Source: Candidatus Latescibacterota bacterium
GTDB lineage: Bacteria; Latescibacterota; UBA2968; GCA-2709665
Direction of reading: 5' to 3'
Assembly (NCBI GenBank): GCA_965222075.1
Contig: OZ244937.1
Coordinates: forward strand, 2,016,001-2,080,000
DNA: 64,000 nt
Position numbers and translations under genes: made by a program. Below are positions 22,580-43,400 of this stretch, piece after piece (position 1 is the stretch's first letter; the number at the start of each line of letters is the position of its first letter). The notes under the pieces are model-generated. The model was given only the letters and a program-made list of their open reading frames with translations, was not told the DNA's origin and searched no databases.

Positions 22580-22648
22580 CGGCGGAGGAGGTGGAGGCGG
22601 TGGAGGCGGTGGCGGCGGCGGAGGTGGAGGCGGTGGTGGAGGCGGTGG
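22580..22648 (-). repeat. Polyproline linker (23 consecutive Pro codons)
   Basis: Run of 23 mixed CCN codons. Confidence 0.95.
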
Positions 22649-24178: not shown

Positions 24179-24265
24179 CCTGTCTGCGTGCCACGCACAG
24201 GCAGGCCTGCCTGCCCGCCTGCGCGCTGCGCGCGGGCAGGCGCCGAGTCCTGCGCGGCAGGCAGG
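24179..24265. mobile_element. Cluster of three mini-palindromic insertions (27 bp, plus 33 bp with a 27 bp element nested inside), 87 bp in frame
   Basis: Removing 24179-24265 gives YEVARRTVDSGEW, exactly collinear with paralog YEVTHLPGDSGEW. Confidence 0.85.
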
Positions 24266-25424
24266 CGCGCCACCTCATACCCGCTCACCGGGGGCTTGCC
24301 CACTTCGTCGGGCGCCGCATCCCAACGCACTGTCAATGCGGTGTCGCGCGGCGCGACCACCACACCCGGGGGCGGCGCAGCAGGCGGCTCGTCCACGTCG
24401 GTGACGGTGATGCCGACGACGACGCTGGCGCGGCCCCCCTCGCCGTCGCTGACGCGTGCGATCACTGAGTAGCTGCTTTGCGCCTCAAAATCATACGTCC
24501 CCTGTGTCCGTATCTGCCCCGTGCCCGCGTCAATGGCAAAACTGTCCGCATCCGCGCCACGCAGACGGTACGCGAGGGTATTGCCATCCGCATCGGTGCC
24601 GGAGACGGGGGTGCCGATATTTTGTCCCGCCGGAGTGTTCTCAGCGATGGAACGCGTCACCAGCGTCGAGGTGAACACCGGCACGCGGTTCACCGTATTG
24701 CCAAAGCTTCGGGCAAAGATCTCAAAGTCGTCAAACCCGACCCTGCCATCGCTGTTCAGGTCGTACTTTCCCCCATACTGCTCATCACCCTCCTGATACC
24801 CGAACGCGCCGGCAAACAGCACAAAGTCCGCAAAATCCACCAGCCCGCTCCCGTCGAAGTCCGGAGAAGGGGGCGCGGCGACCTGTAAGGCAACGCTGAG
24901 GGATAGCGTCACCGCCCCGGTTTGTTCACCCCGGCCCAGTTCAGCGCCCATCAGCCGAATCTCCGTCTCCAAAAACACATCCGTGGTGCGAAATCGCACC
25001 GTGCCGATCAGACCTGTATTCACCGTAGACCCACTCAGGGACGCGATACCGATCCGAACAGAAATCGAGTCCTGCTCTACAAGGACCTGTGCATCGGGCA
25101 GCACGTCGCCCGCATCAAACCCCTCGTACACAACCTGAGTCGAATCGTATTCAATGCGCGCGGAAAGACTGCTCGCACCTTGAATATCACTGCCAAAAAT
25201 CTGAATGGAAACCACCTGGTCGGGAGACACGTCGAGCGAGGAAACGCCCTGGTCGCCAGCGGCATCGTCAAGGTCCAGCGCGAGCGAAAAGCCGGACGGC
25301 TGCGTCGACGGCGACCACGGGGAAATGAACAGCAAAAGGCTCAGTAAACTGATGGCGCCGAGTGCGAGGGGAAAAATTCCAGAGTGGATTTTCATCTGTC
25401 AATACCTGGTTCAGCCTTTATAGC

Positions 25425-25453
25425 GTAGCGGGCGACCGGCCGGTCGCCCCTAC
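25425..25453. repeat. GTAG-type REP palindrome
   Basis: GTAGCGGGCGACCGGCCGGTCGCCCCTAC. Confidence 0.7.
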
Positions 25454-25512
25454 ACGGAGACGTCCGCTTCGCGGCGTGCCCTTCGCAGCGCCGGTCTCTC
25501 TCACAGCCGGAA

Positions 25513-28500
25513 TCACTCATCGACCTGGGTGCCGAAAACCCAGGGACGCGCCTGCTTGATCGCCAGGACGTCGTCGCTGGTGATCTTGAACTCGATCTCC
25601 ATGGCGAACGGTTCATCGGCTGCGGGGTCGTACAGCTCCTCGAACTCCTCGTGGATCACCTCGAGACGTTCTCTCAACTGGCGCATTTGGTCACGGCTCA
25701 TGAGGAGTTGCCCGGGCGGCACCTGGTTGGAGGTCCCAAGGATGATGTAGGGAGGTAGGAAAGGCGGGTTCAACAGGACTTCCTCCGGCACCGAGTGCGC
25801 GTCGGGATTGGTGACCAGATCCTCGCCGACCTGCGTGTTGACGTAGTAGCGCCCGTCACCGCCGTAGATGGGGTCGAAGCTGACGGCCACGCCGTTGGCC
25901 AGTTCGTCCCTGTAGCTGGGATGCACCAGGATGCCCATCGCCGCCGCCATGTGATCGATGCGATGGAAGTCGCGTTCGACGAAGGCGCGGAAGTTCCACA
26001 GGCTGGCGTACACTTCCTTGAGGGACTTGGCGAGATCCTTCTCGTCCTCGCTCGGCTTCTGGCTCTTGGAATCATACAGCCCCGCGCCGTTGAAGCCCGG
26101 CAGGTCCTCGTTGTTGGTGCTGGACCGGTAGCGGCGGTTGATCCCTGCGGAGAAAGACTCATTCATTGTCTCGATTGCCGAGATGATCCAATCCGGCGTC
26201 TCCGCGTCTTCGATGGCCTTGCGCAGCTTCTTGAGTGAGTCCGCCTGGGCTTCGAAGTCCGTCTGGAAAGCTTCGTCGGCCAGCATGGTTTCAATGCGGG
26301 TGTAGAACCCGTTGTGCTTCATGAACTCGTCGTAGAAGTAGAACGGGATCGCGAAGCCGTCGGGCACCGTCCCCTCCGGAAACCCCAGCGTCCCCAGCAC
26401 CGCCACGTTGGCCGCCTTGACGCCGAACGCGTCCCAGTCATCGAAGCCGATCTCACTGAGCGGCGTGATCTCCGTGACCTCGAGGTCCCGTTGCGGCGTC
26501 TGCGTTGTGGCGGGTCGGGACGATTCGTAGTGGGCATCGACCTCCGCGCGGGTGGCTGCCCGGATCGAGTATCCGTCCCCGGTCACCGTGTAGTGGACGT
26601 GGCTGCCGATGAGAGCATCGATGTCGTTCTTGTCGAGGGCGCCGCGGATGAAGGCGTTGGGAATGCCGTCCTGCACGGCGCGCAGGTTGACATGCGAGAG
26701 CGCCGTCTGGGGCACGGTGGAGATGATGCCGGCGACGCGGGGCAGCTCGTTGGGCAGCGCCTCGTAGATCACGATGTCGCGCGGGTGAGGCCGCTCGTCC
26801 GGGTCCATGACCCGCAGCAGGCCGTACCCCTCCCCCGGGTTCAACGCCAGAAAACTGGTTTCGTCGAGGAACTCATCGTCGAACACGAGGTTGATTCGGG
26901 ACTCCCTGTACAATGGCAAGTCGGATTGGGAATGCACAAGAGCGTCGTTCGATATGTAGAACGCCAGGTCGTCCTCAAGCAGCGGCATGCTGGCGGCAAG
27001 CAGCGTATGGGCGCGCGCCACGACGCTGAAGGAGTACGGATGCTGGCGATAGCTCCACCAGTAGCAGTAGACTCCCGGACTGCCATCGGGGGCAACGAGA
27101 TTCCCACGACGCATGAGACTGCCTTCGATCATCCCCTCCTGTCCCAGCTCGATGCCGATGGCCTCCAGGAACTCTTCATGAATCAAGGTGGTTCTGGTGT
27201 TCATGAAGTAGAGACGCGGGCTGTCGGTGTGCATGCCGAGCAGAACGAACTTGAGGTAGTACCCGCTAAAGGAGATCGCCTTGAATGTTTCCAGATCGGG
27301 AATGGCCAGTGCGCCGGTGGTGAATTCCACGGCCGCGGCAGGGTTGACCGGGTTCATGTCCACCGTGTCGAGTTCGGTGAGGTCGTCAATGCAGTCGCCG
27401 TCGACGTCGGCCGGGTCGGTGACGAGGTACTTCTCCACCCGGTAGCGCTCCCTGGGCAGGGCCGCCACGTTCTCGGCCAGCGTGGTCGTGCCCGCTTCGC
27501 CGCGCTTGACCAGGACCGGCGTCTCTACCGTCGCGCCATCCACGTCGTGCCGGACGTAGAGCACGAAGTACCAGTCGGTCGTGGACGCGACCACGATGGG
27601 CACCGCCGTCACTTCCACTTCCACCGGCGTCGGGGCGTCGGCGCCTTCTGTACAGATCCCCCCCACGCCCGAGGACGACCACTCGCCCGTGCCTTCGTCG
27701 TTGGTTGCCCGCACCTGCACCTCGTAACGGGTGTTGACCTCCAGGTTTGTGATGGTTGTCGTCGTGCCGGCGTCGTGCGGCCAGGGGAGGAAGCTGCCGC
27801 TGCCCGCACGATATTGCACGTCGTAGTCCTCGATGTCAGGACCCGTGTTTGTCGGTTCGGTCCAGGTTACGGTCAGGCTGGTGGACGAAGCTGCCTCGAC
27901 CCTCGGGGCAGACGGCCTCCCGGGCGGTTCCTCGACGTCGGCCACGTGGATGGTGACGTCAATCGTGGCCGTGCCGCCGTTGCGGTCGTCGGCTTCCACC
28001 ATCACCAAATAACTATTCTTTGTCGCTTCGTAGTCATAGGTGACGCCCGATCGGGTGCGAAGCTGACCGTTGCCTGCGTTGATGGCGAATGAATCGGCAT
28101 CGGCCCCGTTCAATCGGTAGGTCAGCCGGTGTCCGTCCTCATCGGTGGCGCGGACCGGATGCTGGATGTTCTGGTTCGCCTCGGTGTTCTCGGCCACGGT
28201 GCGGGTGGCGCTCGGGCCCTCGTCGAAGGTCGGGGCCTGATTGGGACCCGGCGGTGGAGGCGGCGGACGTGGAGGCGGCGGAGGCGGCGGAGGCGGCGGG
28301 GGCGGCGGCGGGGGTGATGTCACGACGACCCTGAAGGTAGTTTCTACACGGTTGCCCTGCGCATCAATCGCGGTGATGGTGATGGTCGCACGACCCGGCC
28401 TGTTGGAGGTAATCCTCACCACCGAACCCGAAATGCTCACCGATGCCACATTGGGTTTTGACGACGACACCTCATACGTCAAGGTGGCTTCAGCACGGAA

Positions 28501-30969
28501 GAGGCCCGACACATCCACCGTCTCCTCACTCCCTCCCGGGTCCAGCGTCTGCGTGTCAACAGAACCGACCACCTCTATGGGCTTCACGAACAGACGCAGC
28601 GGATCGCCCACACCCGTCCGGATACCCTGATAGCCTTCCGGCGCCTCAGACACGGACGCCAGGCTTACCACGGTCGCGTTGTCCCCACGCTGCGTCACGG
28701 TGATGGGCGTGCTCCTGGTGCTGCCCGTTTCTATGGTGGCCTCGCTGTGCGACAGGCTACCGCCCGTGACGGACAGACGCACACTCATGTTGAACGGCGC
28801 ACCTTCGGAGAGGGTGACCCTCACCCTCCCCGGACCGGGTGCAAACACATCCGGCGTATCTGTCCGTTTCAGTGCCAGCATAAGCGGGAAGGGCGCCCCC
28901 GGGTTGCGGTCCAACCACAGCGATTGCAAGCTGGATAGCCCGGCGAATATACCCTCGGGCAGCGTGTGCAACTTATTCACATAAAGCAACAGGGTCTGAA
29001 GGTCGGACAGGTCGGAGAATACACCTTCGGGCAACACGGTCAAAGCATTGCCCCCCAGGTCCAGCCGTTGCAGGCTGGACAATTTGGAGAACACGCCGTC
29101 GGACAGGCTGCTCAGGGCATTGGCGCCAAGCTGGAGGTCTTGCAAGCTGTCCAGACCGGAGAAAATACCCTCGGGCAATGCGGTCAGACTGTTGCTGCCC
29201 AAACGCAGGACGCTCAGCCTGGACAGGCCGGCAAAATCACCCGCCTTCAAAGCCGTGATCTCCTGCCTCCTCAAATACAGGGTATCCGTAATCGCGCTCA
29301 GGTGCGCCTCTGTGACCAGCGCGCAGTCCGTGACCTCCGGAATCAGGGATAGGAGCGCATCGCGCACCTGTGGGGTGCGCCCGCAAATCCCCGGCGCGGT
29401 CAGCAGCACGGTTACGGCAATCTCCTGCGTCGCACTCCAGCGGCCGTCGTTGGCTGTGACGGTGATGGCTGCACGCCCCACAGCCACAGGGCGGATGGTC
29501 ACGATGGAATCCGACACACTCACCGTCGCAACCGCGTCATCGGACGATGCCGCGCCATACGTCAGCGTCCCCTCACCCGGATGGGTGAACGCGCTTGCCG
29601 CATTCACGCGAACGTCGCCATCGCCCAGGATCAGGGTCTGCGCAGGAATGACGCCCACGGGCACCGGCCCTCCCACAGGTGTGCCGGAAACAGAGGCTGA
29701 CCATGCACTGGTCCCCTCCTCGTTGAGTGTACGCACACGCACCTGATACACCTGGTCGTTGGTCAGCCCTGTAAGCGTGATACTCGTATCGGTGCGACTG
29801 CTCAGGGTCTGCCCGCCCTCCCATTCACCGCTGTCTCCAGGCAGGTGCGTCACCTCATACCCGCTCACCGGGGGCTTGCCCACTTCGTCGGACGCCGCAT
29901 CCCAGCGCACCGTCAATGCGCTGTCACCAGGCGTGACCACCACACCCGGGGGCGGCGCAGCAGGCGGCTCGTCCACATCGGTGACGGTGATGCCCACCAC
30001 AAGACTGGCACGGCCCCCCTCACCGTCACTGACGCGCACGATCACCGAGTAGCTGCTTTGCGCCTCAAAATCATACGCCCCCTGTGTCCGTATCTGCCCC
30101 GTGCCCGCGTCAATGGCAAAACTGTCCGCATCCGCGCCACGCAGACGGTACGCGAGGGTATTGCCATCCGCATCGGTGCCGGAGACGGGGGTGCCGATAT
30201 TTTGTCCCGCCGGAGTGTTCTCAGCGATGGAACGCGTCACCAGCGTCGAGGTGAACACCGGCACGCGGTTCACCGTATTGCCAAAGCTTCGGGCAAAGAT
30301 CTCAAAGTCGTCAAACCCGACCCCCCCATCGCTGTCCAGGTCGTACTTTCCCCCATACTTCTCATCACCCTCCCGATACCCGAACGCGCCTGCAAACAGC
30401 ACAAAGTCCGCAAAATCCACCAGCCCGCTCCCGTCGAAGTCCGGAGAAGGGGGCGCGGCGACCTGTAAGGCAACGCTGAGGGATAGCGTCACCGCCCCGG
30501 TTTGTTCACCCCGGCCCAGTTCAGCGCCCATCAGCCGAATCTCCGTCTCCAAAAACACATCCGTGGTGCGAAATCGCACCGTGCCGATCAGACCTGTATT
30601 CACCGTAGACCCACTCAGGGACGCGATGCCGACCCGAACAGTAGTCGAGTCCTGCTCTACAAGGACCTGCGCATCGGGCAACACATCGCCCGCATCAAAC
30701 CCCCCGTAAACAACCTGAGTCGAATCGTATTCAATGCGCGCGGAAAGACTGCTCGCACCTTGAATATCACTGCCAAAAATCTGAATGGAAACCACCTGGT
30801 CGGGAGACACGTCGAGAGAAGATACGCCCTGGTCGCCAGCGGCATCGTCCAGATCCAGCGCAAGCGAAAAACTGCTGGTCTGTGTGGATAGCGACCACGG
30901 GGAAATCAGGAGCGCCAGGCTCAGCACACTGACGATGACAAGCGCGAAGGGAAATACATAAGGTTTCAC
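25513..30969 (-). CDS. Giant secreted protein: cohesin, dockerin/EF-hand, cadherin, FN3, Ig-like, LRR, polyPro, cadherin, FN3, C-terminal PEP/pyruvate-binding (PPDK_N-like ATP-grasp) domain
   Basis: Signal peptide; DFDGSGLVDFADF...DLDSDGGVGFDDF; LxxLxLxxN repeats; GVKAAN, VPDGFAIP, RSSTNNED..GFNGAGLYDS, MEIEF, QARP. Start placed at GTG 30969 by analogy with paralogs. Confidence 0.9.
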   Translation of the reverse strand: MKPYVFPFALVIVSVLSLALLISPWSLSTQTSSFSLALDLDDAAGDQGVSSLDVSPDQVVSIQIFGSDIQGASSLSARIEYDSTQVVYGGFDAGDVLPDAQVLVEQDSTTVRVGIASLSGSTVNTGLIGTVRFRTTDVFLETEIRLMGAELGRGEQTGAVTLSLSVALQVAAPPSPDFDGSGLVDFADFVLFAGAFGYREGDEKYGGKYDLDSDGGVGFDDFEIFARSFGNTVNRVPVFTSTLVTRSIAENTPAGQNIGTPVSGTDADGNTLAYRLRGADADSFAIDAGTGQIRTQGAYDFEAQSSYSVIVRVSDGEGGRASLVVGITVTDVDEPPAAPPPGVVVTPGDSALTVRWDAASDEVGKPPVSGYEVTHLPGDSGEWEGGQTLSSRTDTSITLTGLTNDQVYQVRVRTLNEEGTSAWSASVSGTPVGGPVPVGVIPAQTLILGDGDVRVNAASAFTHPGEGTLTYGAASSDDAVATVSVSDSIVTIRPVAVGRAAITVTANDGRWSATQEIAVTVLLTAPGICGRTPQVRDALLSLIPEVTDCALVTEAHLSAITDTLYLRRQEITALKAGDFAGLSRLSVLRLGSNSLTALPEGIFSGLDSLQDLQLGANALSSLSDGVFSKLSSLQRLDLGGNALTVLPEGVFSDLSDLQTLLLYVNKLHTLPEGIFAGLSSLQSLWLDRNPGAPFPLMLALKRTDTPDVFAPGPGRVRVTLSEGAPFNMSVRLSVTGGSLSHSEATIETGSTRSTPITVTQRGDNATVVSLASVSEAPEGYQGIRTGVGDPLRLFVKPIEVVGSVDTQTLDPGGSEETVDVSGLFRAEATLTYEVSSSKPNVASVSISGSVVRITSNRPGRATITITAIDAQGNRVETTFRVVVTSPPPPPPPPPPPPPPPRPPPPPPGPNQAPTFDEGPSATRTVAENTEANQNIQHPVRATDEDGHRLTYRLNGADADSFAINAGNGQLRTRSGVTYDYEATKNSYLVMVEADDRNGGTATIDVTIHVADVEEPPGRPSAPRVEAASSTSLTVTWTEPTNTGPDIEDYDVQYRAGSGSFLPWPHDAGTTTTITNLEVNTRYEVQVRATNDEGTGEWSSSGVGGICTEGADAPTPVEVEVTAVPIVVASTTDWYFVLYVRHDVDGATVETPVLVKRGEAGTTTLAENVAALPRERYRVEKYLVTDPADVDGDCIDDLTELDTVDMNPVNPAAAVEFTTGALAIPDLETFKAISFSGYYLKFVLLGMHTDSPRLYFMNTRTTLIHEEFLEAIGIELGQEGMIEGSLMRRGNLVAPDGSPGVYCYWWSYRQHPYSFSVVARAHTLLAASMPLLEDDLAFYISNDALVHSQSDLPLYRESRINLVFDDEFLDETSFLALNPGEGYGLLRVMDPDERPHPRDIVIYEALPNELPRVAGIISTVPQTALSHVNLRAVQDGIPNAFIRGALDKNDIDALIGSHVHYTVTGDGYSIRAATRAEVDAHYESSRPATTQTPQRDLEVTEITPLSEIGFDDWDAFGVKAANVAVLGTLGFPEGTVPDGFAIPFYFYDEFMKHNGFYTRIETMLADEAFQTDFEAQADSLKKLRKAIEDAETPDWIISAIETMNESFSAGINRRYRSSTNNEDLPGFNGAGLYDSKSQKPSEDEKDLAKSLKEVYASLWNFRAFVERDFHRIDHMAAAMGILVHPSYRDELANGVAVSFDPIYGGDGRYYVNTQVGEDLVTNPDAHSVPEEVLLNPPFLPPYIILGTSNQVPPGQLLMSRDQMRQLRERLEVIHEEFEELYDPAADEPFAMEIEFKITSDDVLAIKQARPWVFGTQVDE
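28249..28314 (-). repeat. Polyproline linker (P15-R-P6)
   Basis: Run of CCN codons with one CGT. Confidence 0.95.
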
Positions 30970-31037
30970 GCGATCCAACCTGCCTGTGCGTGTTCGCTGT
31001 GTTGTGTCTCGTTAGAAACGGAAATATCTATATACAG

Positions 31038-31052
31038 GCAAAATACGTGCCA
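31038..31052 (-). promoter_or_regulatory. Sigma54 (-24/-12) promoter of the giant surface-protein genes
   Basis: Minus strand TGGCACGTATTTTGC matches TGGCACG-N4-TTGC exactly, about 70 bp upstream of the start codon. Confidence 0.8.
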
Positions 31053-31236
31053 GATCTCAAAAATATGCCTAACCCATTGCTGTTGAACGAGTTAGGCAGA
31101 ATATATGAGCAGCGGAGAATTTTGGGAAATTGTCGCAAAATGCAACGCCCAAACCCCTCCGAAGAACAAGCCCATGTCTTTATAACTGACTGTTTATTAA
31201 TGTATTTATAGGAAAGTTGTAAGGCGGGAACGAAAG

Positions 31237-31276
31237 AATGTTGCAACTTGCAATGGGTGTTGCAACTTGCAACATT
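31237..31276. promoter_or_regulatory. Repeated TTGCAA(C) palindromic array, putative activator-binding site
   Basis: AATGTTGCAACTTGCAATGGGTGTTGCAACTTGCAACATT: direct repeat plus 10-bp terminal inverted repeat. Confidence 0.5.
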
Positions 31277-31373
31277 AAAGGTGGGTGGTACCGGGGAACC
31301 GTCGCTGAGGAGGGAGTCGTCGAGGCGTATCAGGTAAAAAGAGAGGTTTCACACGGCCCAACCTGCCTGTGCG

Positions 31374-31433
31374 CCTGCCTGCGCCTGCCTGCGCCGGATG
31401 CTCGGCAGGCAGGCCGTTGGCACGGCAGACAGG
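31374..31433. mobile_element. Nested mini-palindromic elements (30 bp inside 30 bp)
   Basis: CCTGCCTGCG[CCTGCCTGCGCCGGATGCTCGGCAGGCAGG]CCGTTGGCACGGCAGACAGG. Confidence 0.8.
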
Positions 31434-31595
31434 TCGGGACAGTGGATGGGTTGGCGAACCCGGGTGGAAGGCGATTTGTTTGAGGAGTTAGAGGCGGGTG
31501 GTTGCGTTTACAACAGGTACTGACGTGGTGTAAGCCTGGCCTGATGTTTACCGCCAGGCCCGCGAGGAATATACCGCTCGCAGTGCGGCCGGCTT

Positions 31596-32828
31596 TCAAG
31601 CAGACGCTACGGGTGAACTGCGGGGCCGTGCCAGCACGGCGAAGGCGACCACGACCGGGAGCAGCACGATCGCGGCCGCCACGAATCCGGCGCGCAATGA
31701 CAATCCGAGCGCGATTGCGCCCAGGAGGGGTCCGCCGATCACCTGGCCGACGGCATCCATCTGCCCCCCGAAGGACAGGACCGTAGCCCGAACGCGCGAG
31801 GGCACAAAGCGGTTCTGCCAGGCGCTCAGCAGCGGGCCACTGGCGCGCCGTAACGGCCCTCGAGCCCAGAACATCGCCATGGCGAATGGAAACCCCGTCG
31901 CCAGGCCAAAGGCCACCAGGCTGCCGACATAGAGGCCCTGCAGGACCACCAGCACGCCGGCCACGGCCCGGTCGCTGGATGTATTCACGGTCCGCCTGAC
32001 GACTTCCAGCAAGCCGAACCCCAGTCCCATCGATACGTAGCTGCTAAGGCCAAACCACGCCACGTAGTCCAGAGGTCCGAGCCGTGGCATTGTGATCGTC
32101 TCCAGCAGGAACGGCGTGGTCAGTCGATCCGGAACTTCGCTCGACGCGCCAAACAGGAACGGTGTCATCACGATGAGGATCAGGACGCGTCGCCGGCGGA
32201 TCACGTGCAGGGCCTGAAGCAATGTGCGCCCCATCGTCCTGAAGGTCTCGCGCTCGTGGGCAGGCAGTGGCCGAAAGCCGTGCTCCGTCATTGCAAGCGC
32301 CGAGAACAGGGCCAGGCCGAGGTACATGAAGCCCCCAACGACGAATGGCAGGCTGCGATCCATACTCGCCAGCGCGACGGATAGCGCCGCCCCCGCCAGC
32401 CCACCGACGAGACCGGCCTGTGAGCCCCGCAGCAGCGCACGTGGCAGACGCTGGACGCCGATTTCATCGGCCAACCACGCGGTTCGAGCCCCGCTGCCGA
32501 ACGTCACCCCGAGTCCCCCCACGACCTGGGCGGCGAGCAGTACGCCAAAAAGCGGGATGGACCCCGCGAGGAGGAAACCGGCGCCTGTAAGCGCCAGTCC
32601 GATAACCACCGAGAGACGGCGGCTGTAGACGTCGGCGACGACGCCAGTGGGAAGCTCAAAGACAAAGACGGTTGCTTCCAGGACGGTTCCGACCAACACA
32701 AGCTGGAGCGCATTGAGGCCGACGGTCTCGACCTGATAGACGAGGCTCGTTGTGATGACCGTCGCGACGGCGAGCCCCTCGACGGCCGACATGCCGACCG
32801 AAAGTGGGTAGGCGGGCAGCCGCTTCAT
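31596..32828 (-). CDS. MFS transporter (TetA(P)-like)
   Basis: LQLVLVGTVLE, FELPTGVVADVYSRR, RVRATVLS. Confidence 0.88.
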   Translation of the reverse strand: MKRLPAYPLSVGMSAVEGLAVATVITTSLVYQVETVGLNALQLVLVGTVLEATVFVFELPTGVVADVYSRRLSVVIGLALTGAGFLLAGSIPLFGVLLAAQVVGGLGVTFGSGARTAWLADEIGVQRLPRALLRGSQAGLVGGLAGAALSVALASMDRSLPFVVGGFMYLGLALFSALAMTEHGFRPLPAHERETFRTMGRTLLQALHVIRRRRVLILIVMTPFLFGASSEVPDRLTTPFLLETITMPRLGPLDYVAWFGLSSYVSMGLGFGLLEVVRRTVNTSSDRAVAGVLVVLQGLYVGSLVAFGLATGFPFAMAMFWARGPLRRASGPLLSAWQNRFVPSRVRATVLSFGGQMDAVGQVIGGPLLGAIALGLSLRAGFVAAAIVLLPVVVAFAVLARPRSSPVASA

Positions 32829-33778
32829 TCGAACAACCCTCGAACCCGATGAATTGCCTCCTCCGACAGCGGCTTTCCGGACGCCTTCACATTCTCCACC
32901 ACCTGCGCAGGTGTCTTGGCCCCCGGGATCACCGTTGACACCGCGGGCTGCGCCAGCACGAACCTCAGCGCCGCCTCGGCCAGCGAGTCCGCCTCTTCCA
33001 GGAGAAAATCGAGCTGCGCGACCATCTCGGCCGTCTGCTTCACCTTTTCCGGTGGAAACCGCAGGCTCCGCAGGTCGCTTTGGGGGAACACCGTCTCTGC
33101 GTTGTACTTCCCCGTCAGCCAGCCCGAAGCCAGCGGCACCCGGACGATGATCCCCACCCCCTTCTCCAGGGCGGACGGAAAAAGCATATCCCCCTCCTTC
33201 TGCTGCAGGATATTGTAGACCAGCTGAATCGATGTCGCTCCTCCCTCCATCGCCCGCATCCCCTCCTCCACCACCCGATCCGACGACTCCACCGCGTTGA
33301 TCGATACCCCCCAGGTGCGGATCTTCCCCGAAGCCTTCAACGCTTCCATCAACCCGAACAACTCGTCCGTCATCAGCTCCAGGGGGGGGCCGTGAAGCTG
33401 GTAGAGATCCACATAATCCCGCTCCAGGCGGGTCAGACTCGCGTCCAGCGCCCCCCGGATGTACGGCTCTGAAAAATCCTGTCCCGGAGCGGCCAGGCTG
33501 TTCCCGACCTTGGTATTGATCACCGCCGCCGCCTTGTGCTCGTACAGCCCCATTCCCACCAGCACCTCGCTCTTCCCCCGCCCGTACGCATCAGCCGTAT
33601 CGTAAAACGTCACACCCAGATCCCACGCCCGCCGCACCGTCTCAACCGACGCCATAATATCCGCGCCTGACCAGCCGGTCGGGCTCCCTCCCCGAAACGA
33701 CGCCCCACCAATGGGCCAGCATCCCAGCCCAATCTCCGAGACCTCGATCCCCGTTCTCCCAAGTGTCCGATACTCCAT
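32825..33778 (-). CDS. Aldo/keto reductase
   Basis: MEYRTLGRTGIEVSEIGLG, YDTADAYG, DLYQLH, VSTVIPGAKT. Confidence 0.93.
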   Translation of the reverse strand: MEYRTLGRTGIEVSEIGLGCWPIGGASFRGGSPTGWSGADIMASVETVRRAWDLGVTFYDTADAYGRGKSEVLVGMGLYEHKAAAVINTKVGNSLAAPGQDFSEPYIRGALDASLTRLERDYVDLYQLHGPPLELMTDELFGLMEALKASGKIRTWGVSINAVESSDRVVEEGMRAMEGGATSIQLVYNILQQKEGDMLFPSALEKGVGIIVRVPLASGWLTGKYNAETVFPQSDLRSLRFPPEKVKQTAEMVAQLDFLLEEADSLAEAALRFVLAQPAVSTVIPGAKTPAQVVENVKASGKPLSEEAIHRVRGLFE

Positions 33779-33795
33779 TCCGGATCTCCTTTCCT

Positions 33796-34575
33796 TTATA
33801 TCCCGACGAATTCTTCTCCTTCGGGATACAGGTGCCGCATTCTTGGAATGTACTTCTTCAACCACCGATCATTCGTTTCGTCGCCCCCCGGAATATTTGT
33901 ACACATCCACATAGGAGGATCGATATTTTCTTCGGCGCAAAGTTCCACAACCCGGATCACCAGCAGCTGTACGATCAAACAGGACGTCATGGTCGACGCG
34001 ACCCCCACCGGCTGTGAAACCCCCGGCACTGCAACAACCTGTTCGTCTGCGGACGTATGCGTGTCAATAACAATATCCACCACCTCCCCAAGATTCTTCC
34101 GGCTGGGGTGCCTCGCCACGAAATCCTCAGGGGTATGCTCACTGAAGGCCTTGCTGGTGATGCCGATCACCACTGCCGCCCGCTTTTTGGCCGCTAAGGC
34201 CATATCGATGGTTGCCGCGTTCATCCCGTAATAATTGCACACAATCACCACATCCTCCGGCCGCACATCGTGATAGGCCATCGTTGCGCCCCCCATCCCC
34301 GCCACCCGTTCCAGGCAGGGCTTCCCGTCGAACAACCCCAGCCCCGGTCCGAACACAATACTCGCATTCGCCAGACCGCCCGCCCGGTAGAACATCTCCA
34401 TCGCGGGAATCTGGGAATGTCCTCCCGCCCCGGCAACGTGGATGATCGCATCCCGCCTGATGGCCTCAACCAGCGCCTGAGCAGCCTCTTCTATCTGGCC
34501 GGAACTCTCCCGCACGATTTTTTCCAACAGATCGTTCACATGGTCCAGAAATTCCCGACAACCCTTGCTGGGCAT
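33796..34575 (-). CDS. SIS-domain sugar isomerase family protein
   Basis: GAGGHS, EMFYRAGGL, GITS, RHPS motifs. Confidence 0.85.
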   Translation of the reverse strand: MPSKGCREFLDHVNDLLEKIVRESSGQIEEAAQALVEAIRRDAIIHVAGAGGHSQIPAMEMFYRAGGLANASIVFGPGLGLFDGKPCLERVAGMGGATMAYHDVRPEDVVIVCNYYGMNAATIDMALAAKKRAAVVIGITSKAFSEHTPEDFVARHPSRKNLGEVVDIVIDTHTSADEQVVAVPGVSQPVGVASTMTSCLIVQLLVIRVVELCAEENIDPPMWMCTNIPGGDETNDRWLKKYIPRMRHLYPEGEEFVGI

Positions 34576-34623
34576 CGTTGCCCTCCATAACGTTTAGTGG
34601 TTTGAAAAACCCACGCCAAAAAA

Positions 34624-35877
34624 TCACGAAGCAGATCCCGCCGCCGGGACCCCGTCCGCCAATGCCGCCTCTTCCGCCTCTTTCTCTTTGCTCAACAGGC
34701 CTTCCGGGTCCACCCACTGGCTCACCACCAGGGAAATCAGCGCCAGTGCGGACCCGCTGAAAAAGATCACCTGGTACCCGAAGTAGTGCCACGCCAGCCC
34801 GCCGATCAGGGGCGCGGCCACGGCCGCGAAGTGGTTCATCGTCACCCCCATCGAAAGCGTCGGCTTCAGGTCTTCCTCCGGCGCAATCTTGTGGAGGTAG
34901 GTCGTCAGAGCGATGTCTCCAACGAAAACCAGATTGTCGACGCAGTAGAGCACGTAGAGCGTGGGCCGGTGCAGGACCACCGCGTACCCGAAAAACACGA
35001 ACATCAGACCCAGGTAGCTCGCACTCAGCATCGGCCGCTCCCCGTACCGGTCCACCAGCCGTCCCATCAGCGGCGCAATCGCCGCAACCAGCATCTGGTT
35101 GACCAGCATCAGGACCATCGTCGTTCCAACCGGCATCCCGTGCACCTTCACCAGCGCAAAGATCGCAAATGTAAGAAACATCTGCCTCCGGCAGCCCTGG
35201 AGAAAATGGATCGCATAGTAAAGCCCGTAGCGCCGCTTGAACACAAACCCCTTCCCCCGGACCCGGGATTGCTTTCGGGATGCAAACATCACCGCCACGC
35301 CGCCCAGGATGGGTGCGATTCCGGCCACCACAAAAAGCCCCTCATAGCGGAGCAGGTGAAAGCTTAGAATACAGATCCCGATCGTCAGCAACCACGCCGC
35401 ACTCTGCACGCTTCGGAGCTGCCCCAGCCACCTCCCTTTTTTTCCCTCCGGGGAATACGCCAGCCCCATTGCCTGCTCTAAGGGGATCCAACAGTGGAAC
35501 CCGATGCTCCAGAACACCGAATAAAGCGCCAGGGCAAACACCGTTGTCACCCCGGCATACGCTGCAATCCCCAGCCCCATCACAACCAGGGACACCCCGG
35601 CCACCAGGGGAGGCGCCAGCCGGATCATCACCGCAATAAACAGGGCGTTCAAAAACCCCGGCACCTCCCGCAGCGCCTCCACGTACCCCAGCTCGTGGGG
35701 CTCGATTCCCAGCCGCTCCACGATAAAATTGTTAAACAGCGTCAGCTGAACCCCAAAAAAGACCCCCACGGAAAAGACCGCGCAGGCCAGCAGCCTGAAG
35801 TCCCGGTTCCACTCCGCAAATGGATTCTTGAAACGGTTCAACGTCGGCCTCCACCTCAGTTCCCTAAAGGCTCCCAC
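34624..35877 (-). CDS. MFS transporter
   Basis: About 12 hydrophobic segments, REVPGFL, GRLVDRYGER; start position uncertain. Confidence 0.88.
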   Translation of the reverse strand: MGAFRELRWRPTLNRFKNPFAEWNRDFRLLACAVFSVGVFFGVQLTLFNNFIVERLGIEPHELGYVEALREVPGFLNALFIAVMIRLAPPLVAGVSLVVMGLGIAAYAGVTTVFALALYSVFWSIGFHCWIPLEQAMGLAYSPEGKKGRWLGQLRSVQSAAWLLTIGICILSFHLLRYEGLFVVAGIAPILGGVAVMFASRKQSRVRGKGFVFKRRYGLYYAIHFLQGCRRQMFLTFAIFALVKVHGMPVGTTMVLMLVNQMLVAAIAPLMGRLVDRYGERPMLSASYLGLMFVFFGYAVVLHRPTLYVLYCVDNLVFVGDIALTTYLHKIAPEEDLKPTLSMGVTMNHFAAVAAPLIGGLAWHYFGYQVIFFSGSALALISLVVSQWVDPEGLLSKEKEAEEAALADGVPAAGSAS

Positions 35878-36797
35878 ACCTCTCCAAATACCGACCGCAG
35901 CCTGGCCATATCCTCCTCCGGAAGCGGCGGCCCCAGGATCGCCTCGACGTTATCCTCTAAGTGTTTGATATTCGCCGTCCCCGTCAGAACCGTTGACATC
36001 GCCGGGTGGGCCGCCACGTACTTGTACCCGGCCGCCGGAAGCGACGTCACGTGGTCCTTGATCAGCCAGCCAAGCGGGTCGTCGTCCGGCAGCGCATCAG
36101 GCGCAATCAACCCTTGCGCCACCGCATCGGCGATCCGCTCTTTCAGCACCTCCGACCGACTCAAGGCCCGGCGTACCGCCACCATGCAAATCACCCCCAC
36201 GTTCCTCTCCCGGCACATCGGCAGCACCATGTGCTCCGGCGTCGGGCTCAACAGGCTGTAGCCCACCATCGCCGTATCGAACAGGTCGTCCTTCAGCGCC
36301 ATCGGAAACATCTCGTGACGCGGGTCCTGAGAATAGGTCTCCGAGACCCCCAGGAACCGGAACTTTCCCTGATCCTGAAGCCGCTTCATCACCGGCACAA
36401 AGATCTCAATCGTCCGCTGGTAGTCCTCCGGCTTGACCCCGTGGAACTGCATCACATCGATCGTCTCCACTCGCAACCGCTTCAGGCTCCGCTCGACCGA
36501 TTCCACGGCCTCCTCCGGCGTTGCCGTCCACGCGTCCCGCGCCGCCTGGAACTTCGTGGCCACGATGTAGTCCTCCCTCGGCACGCCCTCAAGCGCCCGG
36601 CCCAGGATCACCTCGCTCTCCTTGTATCCGGCCGCCGTATCGAAAAAATTGATCCCCAGGTCCAGCGCCCGGTGCACCAGCCGGGTCACGTCCGGTTCCG
36701 GCACCCCCGTACTCTGCCCAAAATTGCTCGGCCCCCCCGTCCCGATGCCCATCACCGACACGCGAAGCCCGGTCCTGCCAAGCGTACGGTATTCCAT
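35856..36797 (-). CDS. Aldo/keto reductase
   Basis: MEYRTLGRTGLRVS, FFDTAAGY, VATKF, DVMQFH. Confidence 0.92.
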   Translation of the reverse strand: MEYRTLGRTGLRVSVMGIGTGGPSNFGQSTGVPEPDVTRLVHRALDLGINFFDTAAGYKESEVILGRALEGVPREDYIVATKFQAARDAWTATPEEAVESVERSLKRLRVETIDVMQFHGVKPEDYQRTIEIFVPVMKRLQDQGKFRFLGVSETYSQDPRHEMFPMALKDDLFDTAMVGYSLLSPTPEHMVLPMCRERNVGVICMVAVRRALSRSEVLKERIADAVAQGLIAPDALPDDDPLGWLIKDHVTSLPAAGYKYVAAHPAMSTVLTGTANIKHLEDNVEAILGPPLPEEDMARLRSVFGEVWEPLGN

Positions 36798-37100
36798 TGA
36801 TGATCTCCCTGATCAGCTATCATAAGGATTCCTGTTCTCAACCGATTGGATCTAAGCAGCTTCTAATATACGTCATCCTGCAACCGGGTGCCACCCTTTT
36901 GCCGGTGTGGGCCTCTCTCCCCGATGAAAAGGCGAGAATTTTCTACTTGCATAATTCGGTCTATTGACATACTCATGGGCATTCATAATTGTTCACGGTG
37001 CATCCCCACGCACGTTCAACCCTGGAACGTCTCTACGTTCTATCGTTCTATCGTCGCTAATACGAAGATTTGAGGATCCACCCTTTACCAAGGAGCCATT

Positions 37101-40100
37101 GTGAACCTCGTCACATCCCAAGAGATTCAACTCGCACGCCACCACGTAGCAAATGACGCTTCTGCCCGCAGGATCGCAGACAGCATCTTCGCAAGTGCCG
37201 CCCCCTGGCTCGACCGGGACGACAGCGCCATCCGCGACCTCATGCCCGGGGCCGACGTCCCCCGCACCTGGACCGTCAACTACATCACCGGCTGTCCGGT
37301 CCACGGCAGCGGGCCGGAGGGATACAGGGACTATGCGCAGGGTGGGTGGCATCATGACCCCTTCAATACAAAGTGGAAAGTCACCTGCGCCGTCGGAGGC
37401 GAGACCTACCCCAGCAACGACTTCGAAGCCTTCTATCAGACCCGGGACCGCAGCCTCCTCACCGGTCCCTACCCCGACGACGGATCCGGATGGCGGGCGC
37501 CCGGCGCTCTGTACAAACACTGGTTCGTCGCTTACTGTTGCGGCAGCATCTGGTCTACGGTCACGTCCGGCCTGACCTCCCTTTACCAGGCCTACCTCCT
37601 CAGCGGCGACGCTCGATACGCCCACAAGGCTCTCGTCATCCTGGACCGGCTCGCGGAGGTCTACCCCGACATGGACTACAGCACCCAGTCCATGTACGCC
37701 CTTGAATTCTCCCCAGGGTACGACGGCAAGATCTCCGACCTCATCTCCGAAACCGGCATCGTGCGGACCCTCTGCAAAGCCTTAGATGCGGTCCGGGACG
37801 CACTTCCGGACGACCCGACGTTCGGACAAACCGCAGACGCCACCCTCTCCAAGCTTGAACGCGGCATCCTCGGCGCCAGCCTGGAGGGCGTCTACGGGGG
37901 GAAGGTGCGCAGCAACTACGGCGGGCACCAGGAATCCCTCCTGATTGCAGCGCTGGCTCTGGGAGACCCGAAAGAGATTGACCGGGCAGTGGACTGGACG
38001 CTCAACAACACCGGCGAGGCCACAAGGCATAAAGAGATGCTCACCAGCTTCGACGACTACATCTTCCGCGACAGGGCCGCCCACGCCGAAGGAATCAATT
38101 TCGCCTTAGACAGCCTCATCTTCAGAGAAGGCATCGGCTGGGAGTCCTCGCCCGGCTACAACAGCGGGTGGGTCACCCACCTTACCACCATCGCCGCCCT
38201 CCTGGAGCCGCTGGGCGTCCGGCTCTGGGACCGCCCGAAGTTTCGCCGCATGTACCGCTGGCCCACCGAAATGACCTGCATAGACCGCTTCACCCCCGCC
38301 ATTGCCGACGCCGGAAGCGCCCTCGGCGGCCGGGTCCAGTTCTCCGCCGACGCCCTCCGCACCGCGTATGCCGCCACGGGGGACCCCTTTATCGGCGAAC
38401 TTCTAAGGCGGAACAAAACGCGATTCGACAGCTTCGAATCCCTCTTTGACGACCCCCTCACGCCTTCTCCCGACAAAGGTGGCGCAGCAGAACTCAAACG
38501 CCTCACCGTCCCCAGCCATCTCATGGGAGGCTACGGCCTGGCCCTGCTGAGATCCGGACGCGGGAAGGAACGTACCGCAGTCTCCCTCTACTACGGCCGG
38601 GCCGCTACTGAACACGCCCACTTCGACCGGCTCAACCTGGAACTCTTCGGGTACGGACGGAAGCTGGTCCCCGACCTCGGCTATCCCGAACACGCCGCCG
38701 AAGGGGAGGGCCCCGCCGTGTGGACCAAGAACACGGCTTCTCACGCCACCGTCGTGGTGGACGAGCGCCGCCAGGACACCCAGGCCCCCGGCCGGCTCTC
38801 TCTGTTCACGTCAACAGACGGCCTGAACCTGGTCGAAGTCGACGCCCCCGACACCTACCACCACACCTCGGAATACCGCCGTACCGTCGCCCTCATCGAC
38901 ATCGCGCCCGACGCCCGCTACGTCCTGGACCTCTTCCGGATCGCCGGCGGAGATCAACACGACTACAGCATCCACGGCTTCGAGGGCGGCTTCTGCGCCG
39001 AGGGCATTGCCCTCTCCGATCCCCAGGCGGAAGGCACCCTGGCGGGAGAAGACATTCCCCCTGGCGCCATTTATGACGACGACGGGCTGGCCGACCCGCT
39101 CAAAAAAGGCCGCTCCTACTACACCTATCGCGGCAGCGGCTACTCCTGCCTCTACGACATCCGGAGGGGCCGTCCGGAAGCCCCCTGGTCTGCGGCCTGG
39201 ACCGACCTGCCTGCGCAGTGCCATGCTGCAGGCAGGCGCATCCACCGTCGGACTCCGGACCACCTTTCTCCCCTCAGAAGAAGCCATCGTCGCCCACGGG
39301 GATCCCCCCCGCAAACGGGGCGACAACCCCAGGCAGTTGACCTACATCCTGCTCCGCAACTCGGGAGACGGCATCGCAAGCCAATTTGCTGCCGTGCTGG
39401 AACCCTTTGCTGGCGCGCCTAAAATCCACATTGCCGAACAGATCGAACGCACCGACCGCTCGGTCGCCCTCAAAATCCGCCATCAGCACGGCGAAGACAC
39501 CCTCTCCCATACCGTGAGCCCAACCGGAACCACCTTCAGCCTGGTCCGCCGCGACCCGGACGGCAAGCTCATCCGGCTCGACCAGGTCGGTCCCGGATCT
39601 GTCCGGGCAGACGGACACACGCTCACCATTGAAAAAAGCATCTCCGGGAGCATTGTCTCCGTCGATCCCCACACCTCCACCATCCACATCGAACGCGACG
39701 CGAACAGCCAGCCCCTCAGGCGCGCCCTCATCGGTGAAACCATCCACATCCACAACGGCCGCCGCACCACCGCCTACACCATCTCTTCCGTGGAAGGGAG
39801 AGGCAGGGGCTACCGCATCGGCCTGAACAACGAATCCTTCCGCATCGGCAGGTTCCTCACCACCGGCATCAACGCCGACGGATCGGGCCTATCCACCAAA
39901 ACCTGCCTCTACCTGGCCTCACAGGGCTACTACCGGGGCGCTCGCCTGGTGGATGAAACGCATGCGGTGTGGCTGCCTGTAGAAGACGTGAAGCTCTCGC
40001 CGCACCGTCCCAAATCTCGCCGGGACGGGTCAATTGCTCTGGTGGACAATCACGATCTGCACGCGCACTTCACACCCGGACAGATCGCCTATCTCTACGA

Positions 40101-40209
40101 CTTCGGGCCGGGCGACGCCGTCTCCATCACGCCGCGTGCGACGGCACTCCGCCGGACGGACGGCAGCTTCCGGACAAAAGGAAATTGTCGCGCGGTTCTG
40201 TCAGGGTAG
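37101..40209 (+). pseudogene. Heparinase II/III-like protein, frameshifted by a 31-bp palindromic insertion at 39206-39236
   Basis: WESSPGY, HAHFDRL, DLGYP, SHATVVVD; ORFs 37101-39422 and 39007-40209 join into one frame when the insertion is removed. Confidence 0.85.
39206..39236. mobile_element. 31-bp mini-palindromic insertion
   Basis: CCTGCCTGC-GCAGTGCCATGCT-GCAGGCAGG; clean removal restores WTDASTVGLRTTFLP (paralog WTDAELNIGLRTTFLP). Confidence 0.9.
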
Positions 40210-40214
40210 GGCAC

Positions 40215-40415
40215 GGAGGGTATTCGGTGCGGGGGGAAGGGGCTTTTCCGCGCAGATCCCCCCAGCACCTGCGCCCAAAAACGCCCCAAAGGTCCGCAGG
40301 GCAGAAACGCCTGCTTCCACCCCAAGGGCAGTTCGCGGAAAAGCAGCCCCGCGGCGTTTGAGCGGCGCCCTTCTTTTTCGGCCTTTTTCTTGGGCGAACA
40401 AGAAAAAGGCCAAAA
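40215..40415. repeat. Structured intergenic element (MITE/REP-like) ending in a strong hairpin
   Basis: GCTTTTCCGCG...CGCGGAAAAGC long-range inverted repeat and GGCCTTTTTCTTG-GGCGAA-CAAGAAAAAGGCC hairpin. Confidence 0.5.
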
Positions 40416-40462
40416 GCAAAAGAAAGGTTACTTTCCAAGCAACTTCTTACCAGGGAGCCATT

Positions 40463-43400
40463 GTGAACCTCTTCACACCCGAACAGGTCCGCCTCGCCCG
40501 ACAACACGTGGCAGACGATCCCGTTGCACGCAAGACCGCAGACGCCATCTTCAAATCCGCTGCTCCCTGGCTCGAACGGGAGAGTGACGCCATTCGGCAT
40601 TTGATGCCCGACGCTTTCATCCCCCGCACCCGGCACATCACGCCCGGCACCTTCACCGTCAACTATGCCACCGGCTGTCCGGTCCACGACAGGCCGCCGG
40701 AAGACTTTGAGGGCTACTCGCAGTGGGAGTGGATCTACGACCCCTTCAAAGACCGCTGGCGCATCACCTGTCCGGTTGGAGGCGAGACCTACCCCAGCAA
40801 TGACTTCGAAGCCTTTTATCAAACCCGGGACCGCAGCCTGCTCACCGGTCCCTATCCCGACGATGGGTACGGCTGGCGCCCGGATGGGTCTCCCTACCGT
40901 TTCTGGTTCATCGGTTACTGCGGAGACGCGATGTGGCGCACGGTGATGGGCGGCCTCACCGCCCTCTCCCGGGCCTACCTCCTGGGCGGCGACGCCCGGT
41001 ACGCGCACAAGGCCCTGGTTATCCTGGACCGGCTCGCCGAAGTCTATCCCGACATGGACCATTCCAAACAGTCCATGTACGCAGTTGACCTCTCTCCCGG
41101 CTACGACGGAAAGATGTTCAACCTCATTGCCGAGACCGGCACCGTTCGCCAGCTCTGCGAAGCCCTGGACGCCGTCCGGGACGCCATCCCGTCAGATCCG
41201 GTATACGGACCGACCGCAGGCGCCACCCTCTCCAAGCTCGAACGGGGCATCATCGGCGCCAGCATCGAAGGCGTGTACACGGGCCAGGTGCGGGGCAACT
41301 ATGGCATGCACCAGGAGGCCCTGCTCTTCGCCGCCATCGCCTCGGGGGATCAGGTGGAAATCCACAAAGCGGTTGAGTGGGTGCTCAACAACACCGGCGA
41401 GGCCACAAGGCACAAAGAGATGCTCACCAGCTTCGACGACTACATCTTCCGCGACAGGGCCGCCCACGCCGAGGGGCTCAACTTCGCCCTGGACAACCTC
41501 CACTTTCGGGAAGGCATCGGCTGGGAGTCCTCGCCTTCCTACAATGGCTCCTGGATCGGCCACCTCACCGTCGTCGCCGCCCTGCTGGACCGCCTGGGCG
41601 TGCGGGTCTGGGACCGTCCCGGGTTCCGCCGCATGTACCGCTGGCCGGTCGAAATGACCTGCTTAGACCGGTTCACCCCCGCCATCGGCGACTCCGGCGG
41701 CATCGGTTCCGGCCTGGCACAGCCGGGCGCGGCCGTTCTCCGCACCGCGTACGCCGCCACGGGCGACCCCCTCATCGGGGAACTCCTGCGAAAGCACAAC
41801 TTCACCTTCAACAGCTTCGATTCGCTCTTTGAAGAGCCCGCAACGCCTCCCTCAGACAAAGGTGGCGCCGCCGAGATCAAACGCCTCACCGCCTCCAGTC
41901 ACCTCCTGGGAGGCTACGGCCTGGCCCTGCTGAGATCCGGACGCGGAAAGGAGCGCACCGCCGTCTCCCTCTACTATGGTCGGGCCGCCACCGAGCACGC
42001 CCATTTCGACAGGCTCACCTTAGAACTCTTCGGCTACAGCAGAAAACTCATCCCCGACTTAGGCTACGGCGACCATGCCTCCGAAGGGGATCCTCCCGCC
42101 GTCTGGACCAAAAACACGGCCTCCCACGCCACCGTCGTCGTGGACGAACGTCGGCAGGACACCCAGGCCCCCGGCCGGCTCTCTCTGTTCACGTCAACAG
42201 ACGGCCTGAACCTGGTCGAGGTCAACGCCCCCGACACCTACCACCACACCTCGGAATACCGCCGTACCGTCGCCCTCATCGACATCGCGCCCGATGCCCG
42301 CTACGTCCTGGACCTCTTCCGGGTCGCCGGCGGAGACCAACACGACTACAGCCTCCACGGCTTCGACGGCGACTTCAGCACCAGCGGCATTGCCCTCTCG
42401 CCGCAGGCAGCAGGCACCCTTGCCGGGGAGGACGTCCCCTTTGGCGACATCTACGACGACGAGGCCCTCAAAGACCCGGTTCGGAAGGGACGCACCTACT
42501 ACACCTATCGCGGCAGCGGCTACTCCTACCTCTATAACGTCCAAAGAGGCCATCCCGACGGCGTCTGGTCGGCGGCCTGGACCGACGCCGAATTGAACAT
42601 TGGTCTGCGGACTACCTTCCTGCCCTCGGACGGCGCCGTGGTCGCTCAGGGCAAAGCCTCCCGCAGAGCGGGCAATCCCGACGCACTGACCTACATCCTT
42701 CTCCGCAACTCGGGAGACGGCATCGCAAGCCAATTTGCTGCCGTGCTGGAACCCTTTGCTGGCGCGCCTAAAGTCCACATTGCCGAACAGGTCGAACGCA
42801 CCGACTGCTCGACCGCCCTCAAGATCCGCCATCAGCACGGCGAAGACACCCTCTCCCATACCGTGAGCCCAACCGGAACCACCTTCAGCCTGGTCCGCCG
42901 CGACCCGGACGGCAAGCTCATCCGGCTCGACCAGGTCGGACCCGGATCTGTCCGGGCAGACGGACACACGCTCACCATTGAAAAAAGCATCTCCGGGAGC
43001 ATTGTCTCCGTCGATCCCCACACCTCCACCATCCACATCGAACGCGACGCGAACAGCCAGCCCCTCAGACGCGCCCTCATCGGTGAAACCATCCACATCC
43101 ACAACGGCCGCCGCACCACCCCCTACACCATCTCCTCCATAGAAGGCAGGCCTGCCTGCAGCGCGGTGCGCCGCGCAGGCAGGGGCTCCCGCATCGGCCT
43201 GAACAACGAATCCTTCCGCATCGGCAGGTTCCTCACCACCGGCATCAACGCCGACGGATCGGGCCTGTCCACCAAAACCTGCCTCTACCTGGCCTCACAG
43301 GGCTACTACCGGGGCGCTCGCCTGGTGGATGAAACGCATGCGGTGTGGCTGCCTGTAGAAGACGTGAAGCTCTCGCCGCACCGTCCCAAATCTCGCCGGG

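Follow-up and report, generated by a model that had tools for sequence, protein, structure and literature searches.

A 64,000-nucleotide (nt) stretch of a Candidatus Latescibacterota bacterium genome (contig OZ244937.1, positions 2,016,001 to 2,080,000; hereafter the window) carries a family of short hairpin units with CCTG and CAGG ends, located both within and between genes. An initial annotation had placed seven such units in the window, and all seven are present with the lengths that it gave: 27, 33 (outer), 27, 30 (outer), 30, 31 and 33 nt. It had also described copies landing in or beside one another, and peeling inner units out of outer ones resolves nested and tandem copies of this kind. 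The units, orphan halves and host genes are listed below, in window positions.

24179..24205, plus strand: 27-nt unit of the CCTGT-stem subfamily, in tandem with the 24206 unit and inside an fn3 domain; 4 identical copies in the genome.
24206..24265, minus strand: 33-nt outer unit, interrupted by a nested unit and resolved by peeling; 2 copies in the genome.
24214..24240, plus strand: 27-nt nested unit, a CCCGC-stem variant, resolved by peeling; 5 copies in the genome.
22999..25395, minus strand: LRR/fn3/cadherin host gene with an 87-nt, 29-residue in-frame insert.
30979..30990, plus strand: orphan left half of a unit, intergenic.
31362..31373, plus strand: orphan left half adjoining the 31374 unit, the remnant of a third layer and absent from the initial annotation.
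31374..31433, minus strand: 30-nt outer unit, intergenic, interrupted by a nested unit and resolved by peeling.
31384..31413, minus strand: 30-nt nested unit, resolved by peeling; 6 copies in the genome.
39206..39236, minus strand: 31-nt unit causing a frameshift in a heparinase II/III-like gene (37101-40209, plus strand); 3 target bases missing relative to homologs.
43151..43183, plus strand: 33-nt unit of the commonest subfamily, in frame; 24 copies in the genome, 6 target bases missing relative to homologs.
40463-43585, plus strand: heparinase II/III-like gene hosting the 43151 unit, a paralog of the 37101-40209 gene.

These units are insertions, mostly base-exact and without target duplication. 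Across the genome, 43 sites have a homologous allele of at least 85% on both flanks, and at 35 of them (28 distinct contexts) the allele is empty to the exact base; several of the remaining eight are mis-peeled compounds, and some lack 2-7 target bases. The initial annotation had taken window paralogs as empty sites and had described clean removal at 24179 and 39206. Both points hold for 24179-24265, where the paralog at 29845 is empty and base-exact with a gap of 0. At 39206 the paralog is also empty, but the net gain is 28 nt rather than 31, as it is in 12 of 14 homologs from relatives (two did not align), leaving 3 target bases missing. At 43151, where the boundary was previously called ambiguous, the paralog and all 14 homologs from relatives give a net gain of 27 rather than 33 and thus 6 missing bases. 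The bases missing at these two sites may have been lost during insertion or afterwards. No empty homolog was found for the 31374 site. At the 195 dereplicated, oriented sites, flank duplication is absent from 150 and amounts to 1 nt at 28, which is not beyond chance and agrees with the earlier claim that the target is not duplicated.

The family extends over the whole 5.36-Mb genome that contains the window (G000). The regular expression proposed in the initial annotation gives 226 matches genome-wide; in the window it gives five non-overlapping matches, compared with a mean of 0.01 (maximum 1) in 200 dinucleotide shuffles. Across the genome, exact 8-nt ends form 79 pairs at the 33-nt spacing and, in reversed order, 13 pairs over all spacings to 120 nt. 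Three rounds of peeling (237, 21 and 1 units) recovered 259 units at 235 sites. Removal of eight compounds of at least 38 nt left 251 units of 19-36 nt, with length peaks at 33 (102 units), 27 (60), 30 (21), 25 (18) and 36 nt (14); 199 of the 251 lengths are multiples of three. An initially missed stem variant raised the number of sites to 247, and these unit and site counts are lower bounds, with further variants among the orphan halves. The cores, once thought free to vary and different in every copy, do all differ within the window. Genome-wide, however, five of the seven units have identical twins (4, 5, 6, 24 and 2 copies), and the 237 units comprise 114 distinct sequences whose cores form recurring subfamilies with a conserved bulged stem. 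Some of the 24 identical copies of the commonest core lie at one site of a host repeat of roughly 50 copies.

Sites in or beside repeated DNA number 59 of 247, compared with 11 expected, and units often land in other hairpin repeats and in CRISPR repeats. An uncharacterised modular intergenic repeat of 150-200 nt, with 51 matches in G000:C1 (e.g. 281900-282100), is struck repeatedly by hairpin units at fixed positions. In a CRISPR array of 50 repeats (L358:2817-2980; G000:C1 about 2492800-2492980), both repeats nearest one end carry an identical 27-nt unit at the same position, and the next repeats shown are empty. The adjoining Cas4-Cas1 gene holds a 30-nt in-frame unit.

Orientation could be assigned to 218 of the 251 units, the side of the bulge alone being ambiguous as a rule. 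An oriented unit reads CCTG-Y-CTG, followed by a variable stem-loop and by C-R-CAGG-CAGG. Positions 5 and -9 covary (CG in 122, TA in 95 and TG in one of the 218), and two more variants alter both sides of the basal stem (CTTGC, 18 matches; CCCGC, 7 matches). Because of this covariation and these two-sided variants, the unit likely has, although this is not proven, a 5-bp basal stem (CCTGY/RCAGG), a 2-nt CT bulge, a variable inner stem-loop and an unpaired 4-nt CAGG tag; this fold draws on three variant events, each of which can also be read on the other strand.

The insertion point (^) lies in an R^Y step at 151 of the 195 sites, against a background of 24%. The commonest steps are G^C (59), A^T (52), G^T (23) and A^C (17), with C^T at four. 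Adenine at -2 (6 sites) and thymine at +2 (2 sites) are nearly absent, while C is enriched at -4 (96) and G at +4 (109), giving a loose context of C-N-B-R^Y-V-N-G. The strictness of each flank varies by subfamily, and the R^Y rule is looser in other genomes. A replication-strand bias of the target motif is weak (47 versus 80, p 0.05-0.06 after background). An internal tetramer acting as target guide is not clearly supported (T/C at +1 by subfamily, p 0.18; A/G at -1, p 0.03). The unit ends CAGG^ and ^CCTG are themselves ideal target half-sites, so every junction recreates a target. This mimicry would explain tandem and nested copies such as those at 24179-24265 with no extra assumption.

We made gene calls for this analysis (3856 genes, 83% coding) and compared lengths modulo three inside and outside genes, a check that had been proposed at the outset. 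The frame is kept at 58 of 60 in-gene sites and at 134 of 187 sites elsewhere, and unit density is 13.5 per Mb in genes against 203 per Mb elsewhere. The share of multiples of three is far above one third outside genes too, and a stop triplet occurs in 14 of 119 distinct cores versus 28 in shuffles. Because of this frame retention, density, length bias and scarcity of stops, the family looks shaped by survival in genes. Most in-gene insertions look to have been purged or to have turned their hosts into pseudogenes. The 31-nt copy at 39206 breaks its gene, as had been noted: the first stop falls at codon 773 with the insert and at codon 1025 without it, in a gene 79% identical to its 1041-codon paralog. 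In genes, units show no orientation bias relative to transcription (26 versus 28). The earlier description of a minimal non-autonomous insertion element that acts as a source of in-frame peptide inserts is supported. These inserts add short peptides to working proteins, including the products of phage capsid and Cas4-Cas1 genes.

Copy number ranges from 0 to 214 among 41 relatives and from 0 to 185 within one genus. A scan of 185,579 genomes returned at least 122 stretches with units, a few of which may be chance matches. Titles seen for 80 of these name Planctomycetota, Thermodesulfobacteriota, Bacteroidota, Verrucomicrobiota, Lentisphaeria, Nitrospinota, Acidobacteriota, Latescibacterota, Patescibacteria and others. 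Matches from other genomes frequently include 27-mers identical to those of G000. Similar CCTG-ended 20-21-mers are probably common in candidate-phyla genomes.

Temperate phages carry the units. A viral scan gave 119 stretches; 80 of them were examined, and of the 76 units there, 65 have a length divisible by three. When phages were searched by capsid protein, with a query taken from a unit-bearing phage, units were present in 11 of the 13 closest loci (three of which are one phage) and in one of 67 more distant loci. One clade of temperate phages (L408-L420), with a serine integrase, a Mom-like gene and a ParB-methylase, has up to five units in 20 kb, several of them inside structural genes. 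Of the 11 sites with a comparable homolog in the temperate-phage clade, ten are base-exact, among them 21-nt units within the capsid gene. Temperate phages and other mobile DNA carry the units from one lineage to another. No convincing copy was found in a plasmid collection, and G000 has no match to the head genes of the unit-bearing phage.

The family resembles several known systems. Like REP and REPIN sequences with RAYT (TnpA-REP) enzymes, as treated in PMC3733652, PMC3333891, PMC8266576 and PMC3116915, it consists of 20-40-nt stem-loops with a 4-nt tag outside a bulged stem, in hundreds of copies with patchy spread and some intragenic members. The initial annotation had set these units far from known kinds. 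That view is not supported: CGTC REPs, which likewise lack a dedicated transposase, already represent 20-40-nt tagged hairpins that enter genes (PMC3733652), and the small dispersed repeats of cyanobacteria are a further described example. Unlike in REPs, the tag is CCTG/CAGG rather than GT[AG]G or CGTC (GTAG or CGTC adjoins one of 251 units; GTGG was not counted separately), it belongs to the inserted piece, and both ends mimic the target. Judging from the insertion sites, the units enter at R^Y rather than at C^T or a guide-matched dinucleotide. No examined RAYT gene is flanked by the unit family, and no Y1 locus of the relatives contains more than one inserted unit. Unlike in REPINs, single units rather than inverted doublets give gap-0 empty alleles.

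Unlike MITEs, the units make no target-site duplication; no clear candidate emerged for a MITE parent in the form of a gene with an orphan left half on one side and an orphan right half on the other, in a test that did not extend to insertion sequence (IS) databases. The small dispersed repeats (SDR) of cyanobacteria described by Elhai et al. in 2008 are said in some cases to insert in frame in genes, and no enzyme is known for them. These dispersed units of about 20 nt are thought to be mobile (PMC2884548); unlike them, and comparing by description rather than by sequence, our family occurs in many non-cyanobacterial phyla and in phages. The repeats treated in PMC6006769 show both resemblances and differences. 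The right arm of its subclass-2.7 RAYT repeats resembles the left end here, and its class-3 repeats have a CnGA foot like our commonest left flank. Within its Table S1, no entry has CAGGCAGG, CCTGTCTG or CAGACAGG, and one has CCTGCCTG as part of a GTGG repeat. The class-3 repeats shown there for Solibacter are unrelated to the units, and a motif scan without a profile found no class-3 TnpA-Y1 gene in G000.

Ssn nucleases with their NTS/SRM hairpins likewise combine short hairpin repeats in hundreds of copies with a single-strand enzyme, but none of the 251 units matches the SRM pattern (PMC11893778), and among 30 GIY-YIG loci a unit occurs in one, at a distance of about 1.1 kb from the GIY-YIG match. 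By analogy, hairpin recognition and the lack of target duplication would also recall IS200/IS605 peel-and-paste transposition; here, unlike there, no transposase lies inside the unit, and both flanks are constrained instead of a one-sided 5' tetranucleotide. The window has an IS200-type tnpA gene (55880-56323, minus strand) that is intact, with a terminal hairpin and no unit nearby. The family works like a REP-type hairpin, yet it lies outside the GTAG/CGTC REPs, REPINs, Ssn elements and MITEs on their defining features. Within the tagged-hairpin kind, it stands out by an unusual unit size, its target symmetry and the lack of a linked enzyme. We found no description of this family in the literature, where our coverage of subscription papers was thin and absence is therefore not proven.

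We searched for the moving enzyme by comparing high- and low-copy members of the 41 genomes. Six families fail to separate the two groups. IS91-type Y2 enzymes occur in only two of nine high-copy genomes. GIY-YIG proteins are in 23 of 23 low-copy genomes and absent from G002, and the single match in G000 is a 629-residue frame. GxxExxY proteins are in nine of nine high-copy but also 17 of 23 low-copy genomes. Four-helix-bundle proteins are missing from G000, G002 and G003, and G000 has neither an integron integrase (at 1e-30) nor an IS110 match. DUF559 proteins and tyrosine recombinases were listed for G000 only. Clustering of open reading frames (ORFs) beside units revealed no recurrent gene at 122 genome and 80 viral loci. 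An enzyme acting in trans, as the initial annotation had envisaged, is supported. Pfam searches of 58 genes around 20 unit-rich regions returned transposase fragments and ordinary genes, and the 34 ORFs of the unit-rich phage clade comprise structural genes, a methylase, a Mom-like protein, a serine integrase and many unnamed frames. A 149-residue gene (L535:2961-3410, L294:57-358) was set aside; it is present in one of five other high-copy genomes and has no Atlas hit. Its 90% DNA identity between G000 and G024, members of different families, indicates that it is a recent horizontal transfer.

RxxLPH-type RAYTs, which resemble subclass 2.7 of PMC6006769, are the best named candidates. Pfam Y1 counts correlate weakly with unit copy number (rho 0.33), and a tblastn search found in G000 an intact RAYT that Pfam had missed (L500:2605-3369; G000:C1:3242104-3242868). 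This gene has HUH and Tyr motifs and an internal insertion, scores 55.6 with the NCBI RAYT model (cut-off 80), and has copies at 70-82% identity in G009, G012, G017 and G019. Its flanks hold GTAG repeats of its own and, downstream, a duplicated segment. In the repeat flanking one RAYT clade, the 3' arm is identical to the left end, 9 nt long, of CCTGT-subfamily units. A second RAYT-like gene of G000 (L501; G000:C1 about 1857800-1859450) has tandem partial copies and GTAGGGGC-type repeats in its coding region. In L017 and L018 (G002 and G020), a RAYT domain lies in frame inside a long gene, putatively, from its motifs, a DNA methylase of a defence island.

We favour a reading, with a probability of roughly 0.45, in which the unit acts as a single-strand hairpin, non-autonomous and mobilised in trans through HUH (Y1, RAYT-like) chemistry, the enzyme being unlinked to the units. 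Such an enzyme would bind the extruded hairpin, cut both R^Y junctions and rejoin the strands by phosphotyrosine transfer. A closed dumbbell intermediate is conceivable, with the 4-nt tag as its second loop, and the unit would then be pasted into another single-stranded R^Y site. We prefer this model because the tag, bulged stem, dinucleotide-level specificity and lack of duplication match TnpA-REP logic (PMC3333891 and PMC8266576). The base-exact empty alleles, the covarying basal stem, the 9-nt arm in the repeat of one RAYT clade and the weak replication-strand bias of the target motif also speak for it. The RAYT subgroup is found in 12 of 13 genomes with at least 13 units versus 3 of 28 with at most five (5 of 28 with another query), and within the family in 12 of 12 versus 2-4 of 10, an association that is post hoc, depends on a chosen threshold, is drawn among kin and pools four RAYT clades. 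Several other observations weigh against the model. Next to the RAYT of G000 and those of the other clades lie GTAG/GTGG repeats of their own and not the unit family, the repeat of one RAYT clade follows a different distribution, and G024 (97% complete, 75-104 units) lacks such a RAYT. For described RAYTs the cut falls at C^T, CA or a guide-matched site, and C^T accounts for only 4 of 195 sites here. Folding energies prefer the end-to-end fold or rate it equal to the tagged one (0.4-4 kcal/mol, tagged strand), and neither an excision product nor a circle junction was observed. The target is also two-sided, with R at -1 in 171 and Y at +1 in 175 of 195 sites and complementary -1/+1 bases in 103 of 180 versus 71 expected, a pattern more in keeping with a symmetric cut than with a one-sided guide. 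The earlier guess of an HUH/RAYT-like enzyme thus gains co-occurrence, loses linkage to the units and remains a guess.

A symmetric cut could instead be made by a dedicated but unrecognised enzyme other than an HUH Y1, which would bind a pseudo-palindromic site as a dimer, cut bluntly at R^Y and exchange with the CAGG^CCTG junction of an excised unit in a conservative recombination of relaxed specificity. The symmetric target, its -1/+1 complementarity, the ends that act as half-sites, the leap in copy number within one genus, the lack of a RAYT in G024 and the failure of the six known families all fit such an enzyme. However, no gene recurs beside the units, and a 27-bp double-stranded circle is not feasible; we consider this alternative somewhat unlikely. 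Another view dispenses with a dedicated enzyme: host replication and repair would release extruded hairpins as oligonucleotides that are joined into nicks, gaps or breaks, and the family would be whatever sequence this route amplifies and genes tolerate. Small target deletions beside some inserts, frequent landing in hairpin and CRISPR repeats, the bias toward multiples of three without stops, and the lack of a linked gene are as this view would have it. It is nevertheless improbable in our judgement: the ends are base-exact at most sites, the strict end sequence is the same from phylum to phylum, and close relatives with core repair genes in common differ between 0 and 100-200 copies. RNA-templated spread by a reverse transcriptase could draw on the stable stem-loops, and scarless insertion is also seen for group II introns, but G000 has no RVT_1 match and the units show no transcriptional orientation bias, so we regard this route as very unlikely. 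Chance palindromes or assembly artefacts, for which nothing speaks beyond GC-rich composition, are refuted by the identical units in other genomes and phages, the filled and empty alleles and the shuffle controls; the initial annotation had already set chance palindromes aside.

That a CCTG/CAGG hairpin family is real, mobile and widespread bears on a long-standing question, namely by what means orphan palindromic repeats such as CGTC REPs, SDRs and Rickettsia elements spread when no transposase is linked to them. The family makes this question testable through its exact ends, target rule, filled and empty pairs, relatives with 0 to about 200 copies, and phage clade. The fuller proposition, that complete mobile units of 19-36 nt are joined scarlessly at symmetric R^Y sites by an undescribed enzyme or pathway and spread across phyla via phages, is tentative, and we hold it to be somewhat unlikely as a whole. 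If true, it would amount to a new transposition mechanism near the lower size limit for DNA transposition and to a steady source of 7-29-residue protein inserts. An enzyme that pastes a 20-30-base hairpin scarlessly at a dinucleotide-level target would be a candidate tool for in-frame tagging.

Some minor features of the window remain. It has no match in Rfam. A weak match to the unit ends at 62771-62796 has a non-family core and is probably due to chance. Among contigs from four read runs of four studies, which are broken at repeats, one joint spans 24169-24267, differs there in 10 letters and may derive from a paralog. Large fn3/cadherin/LRR proteins are encoded as tandem paralogs at 16826-30978, and tandem paralogs of heparinase II/III-like proteins occupy 37101-43585. 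Identity between the two heparinase genes is 96-99% close to their 3' ends but about 78% upstream, a pattern that suggests gene conversion.

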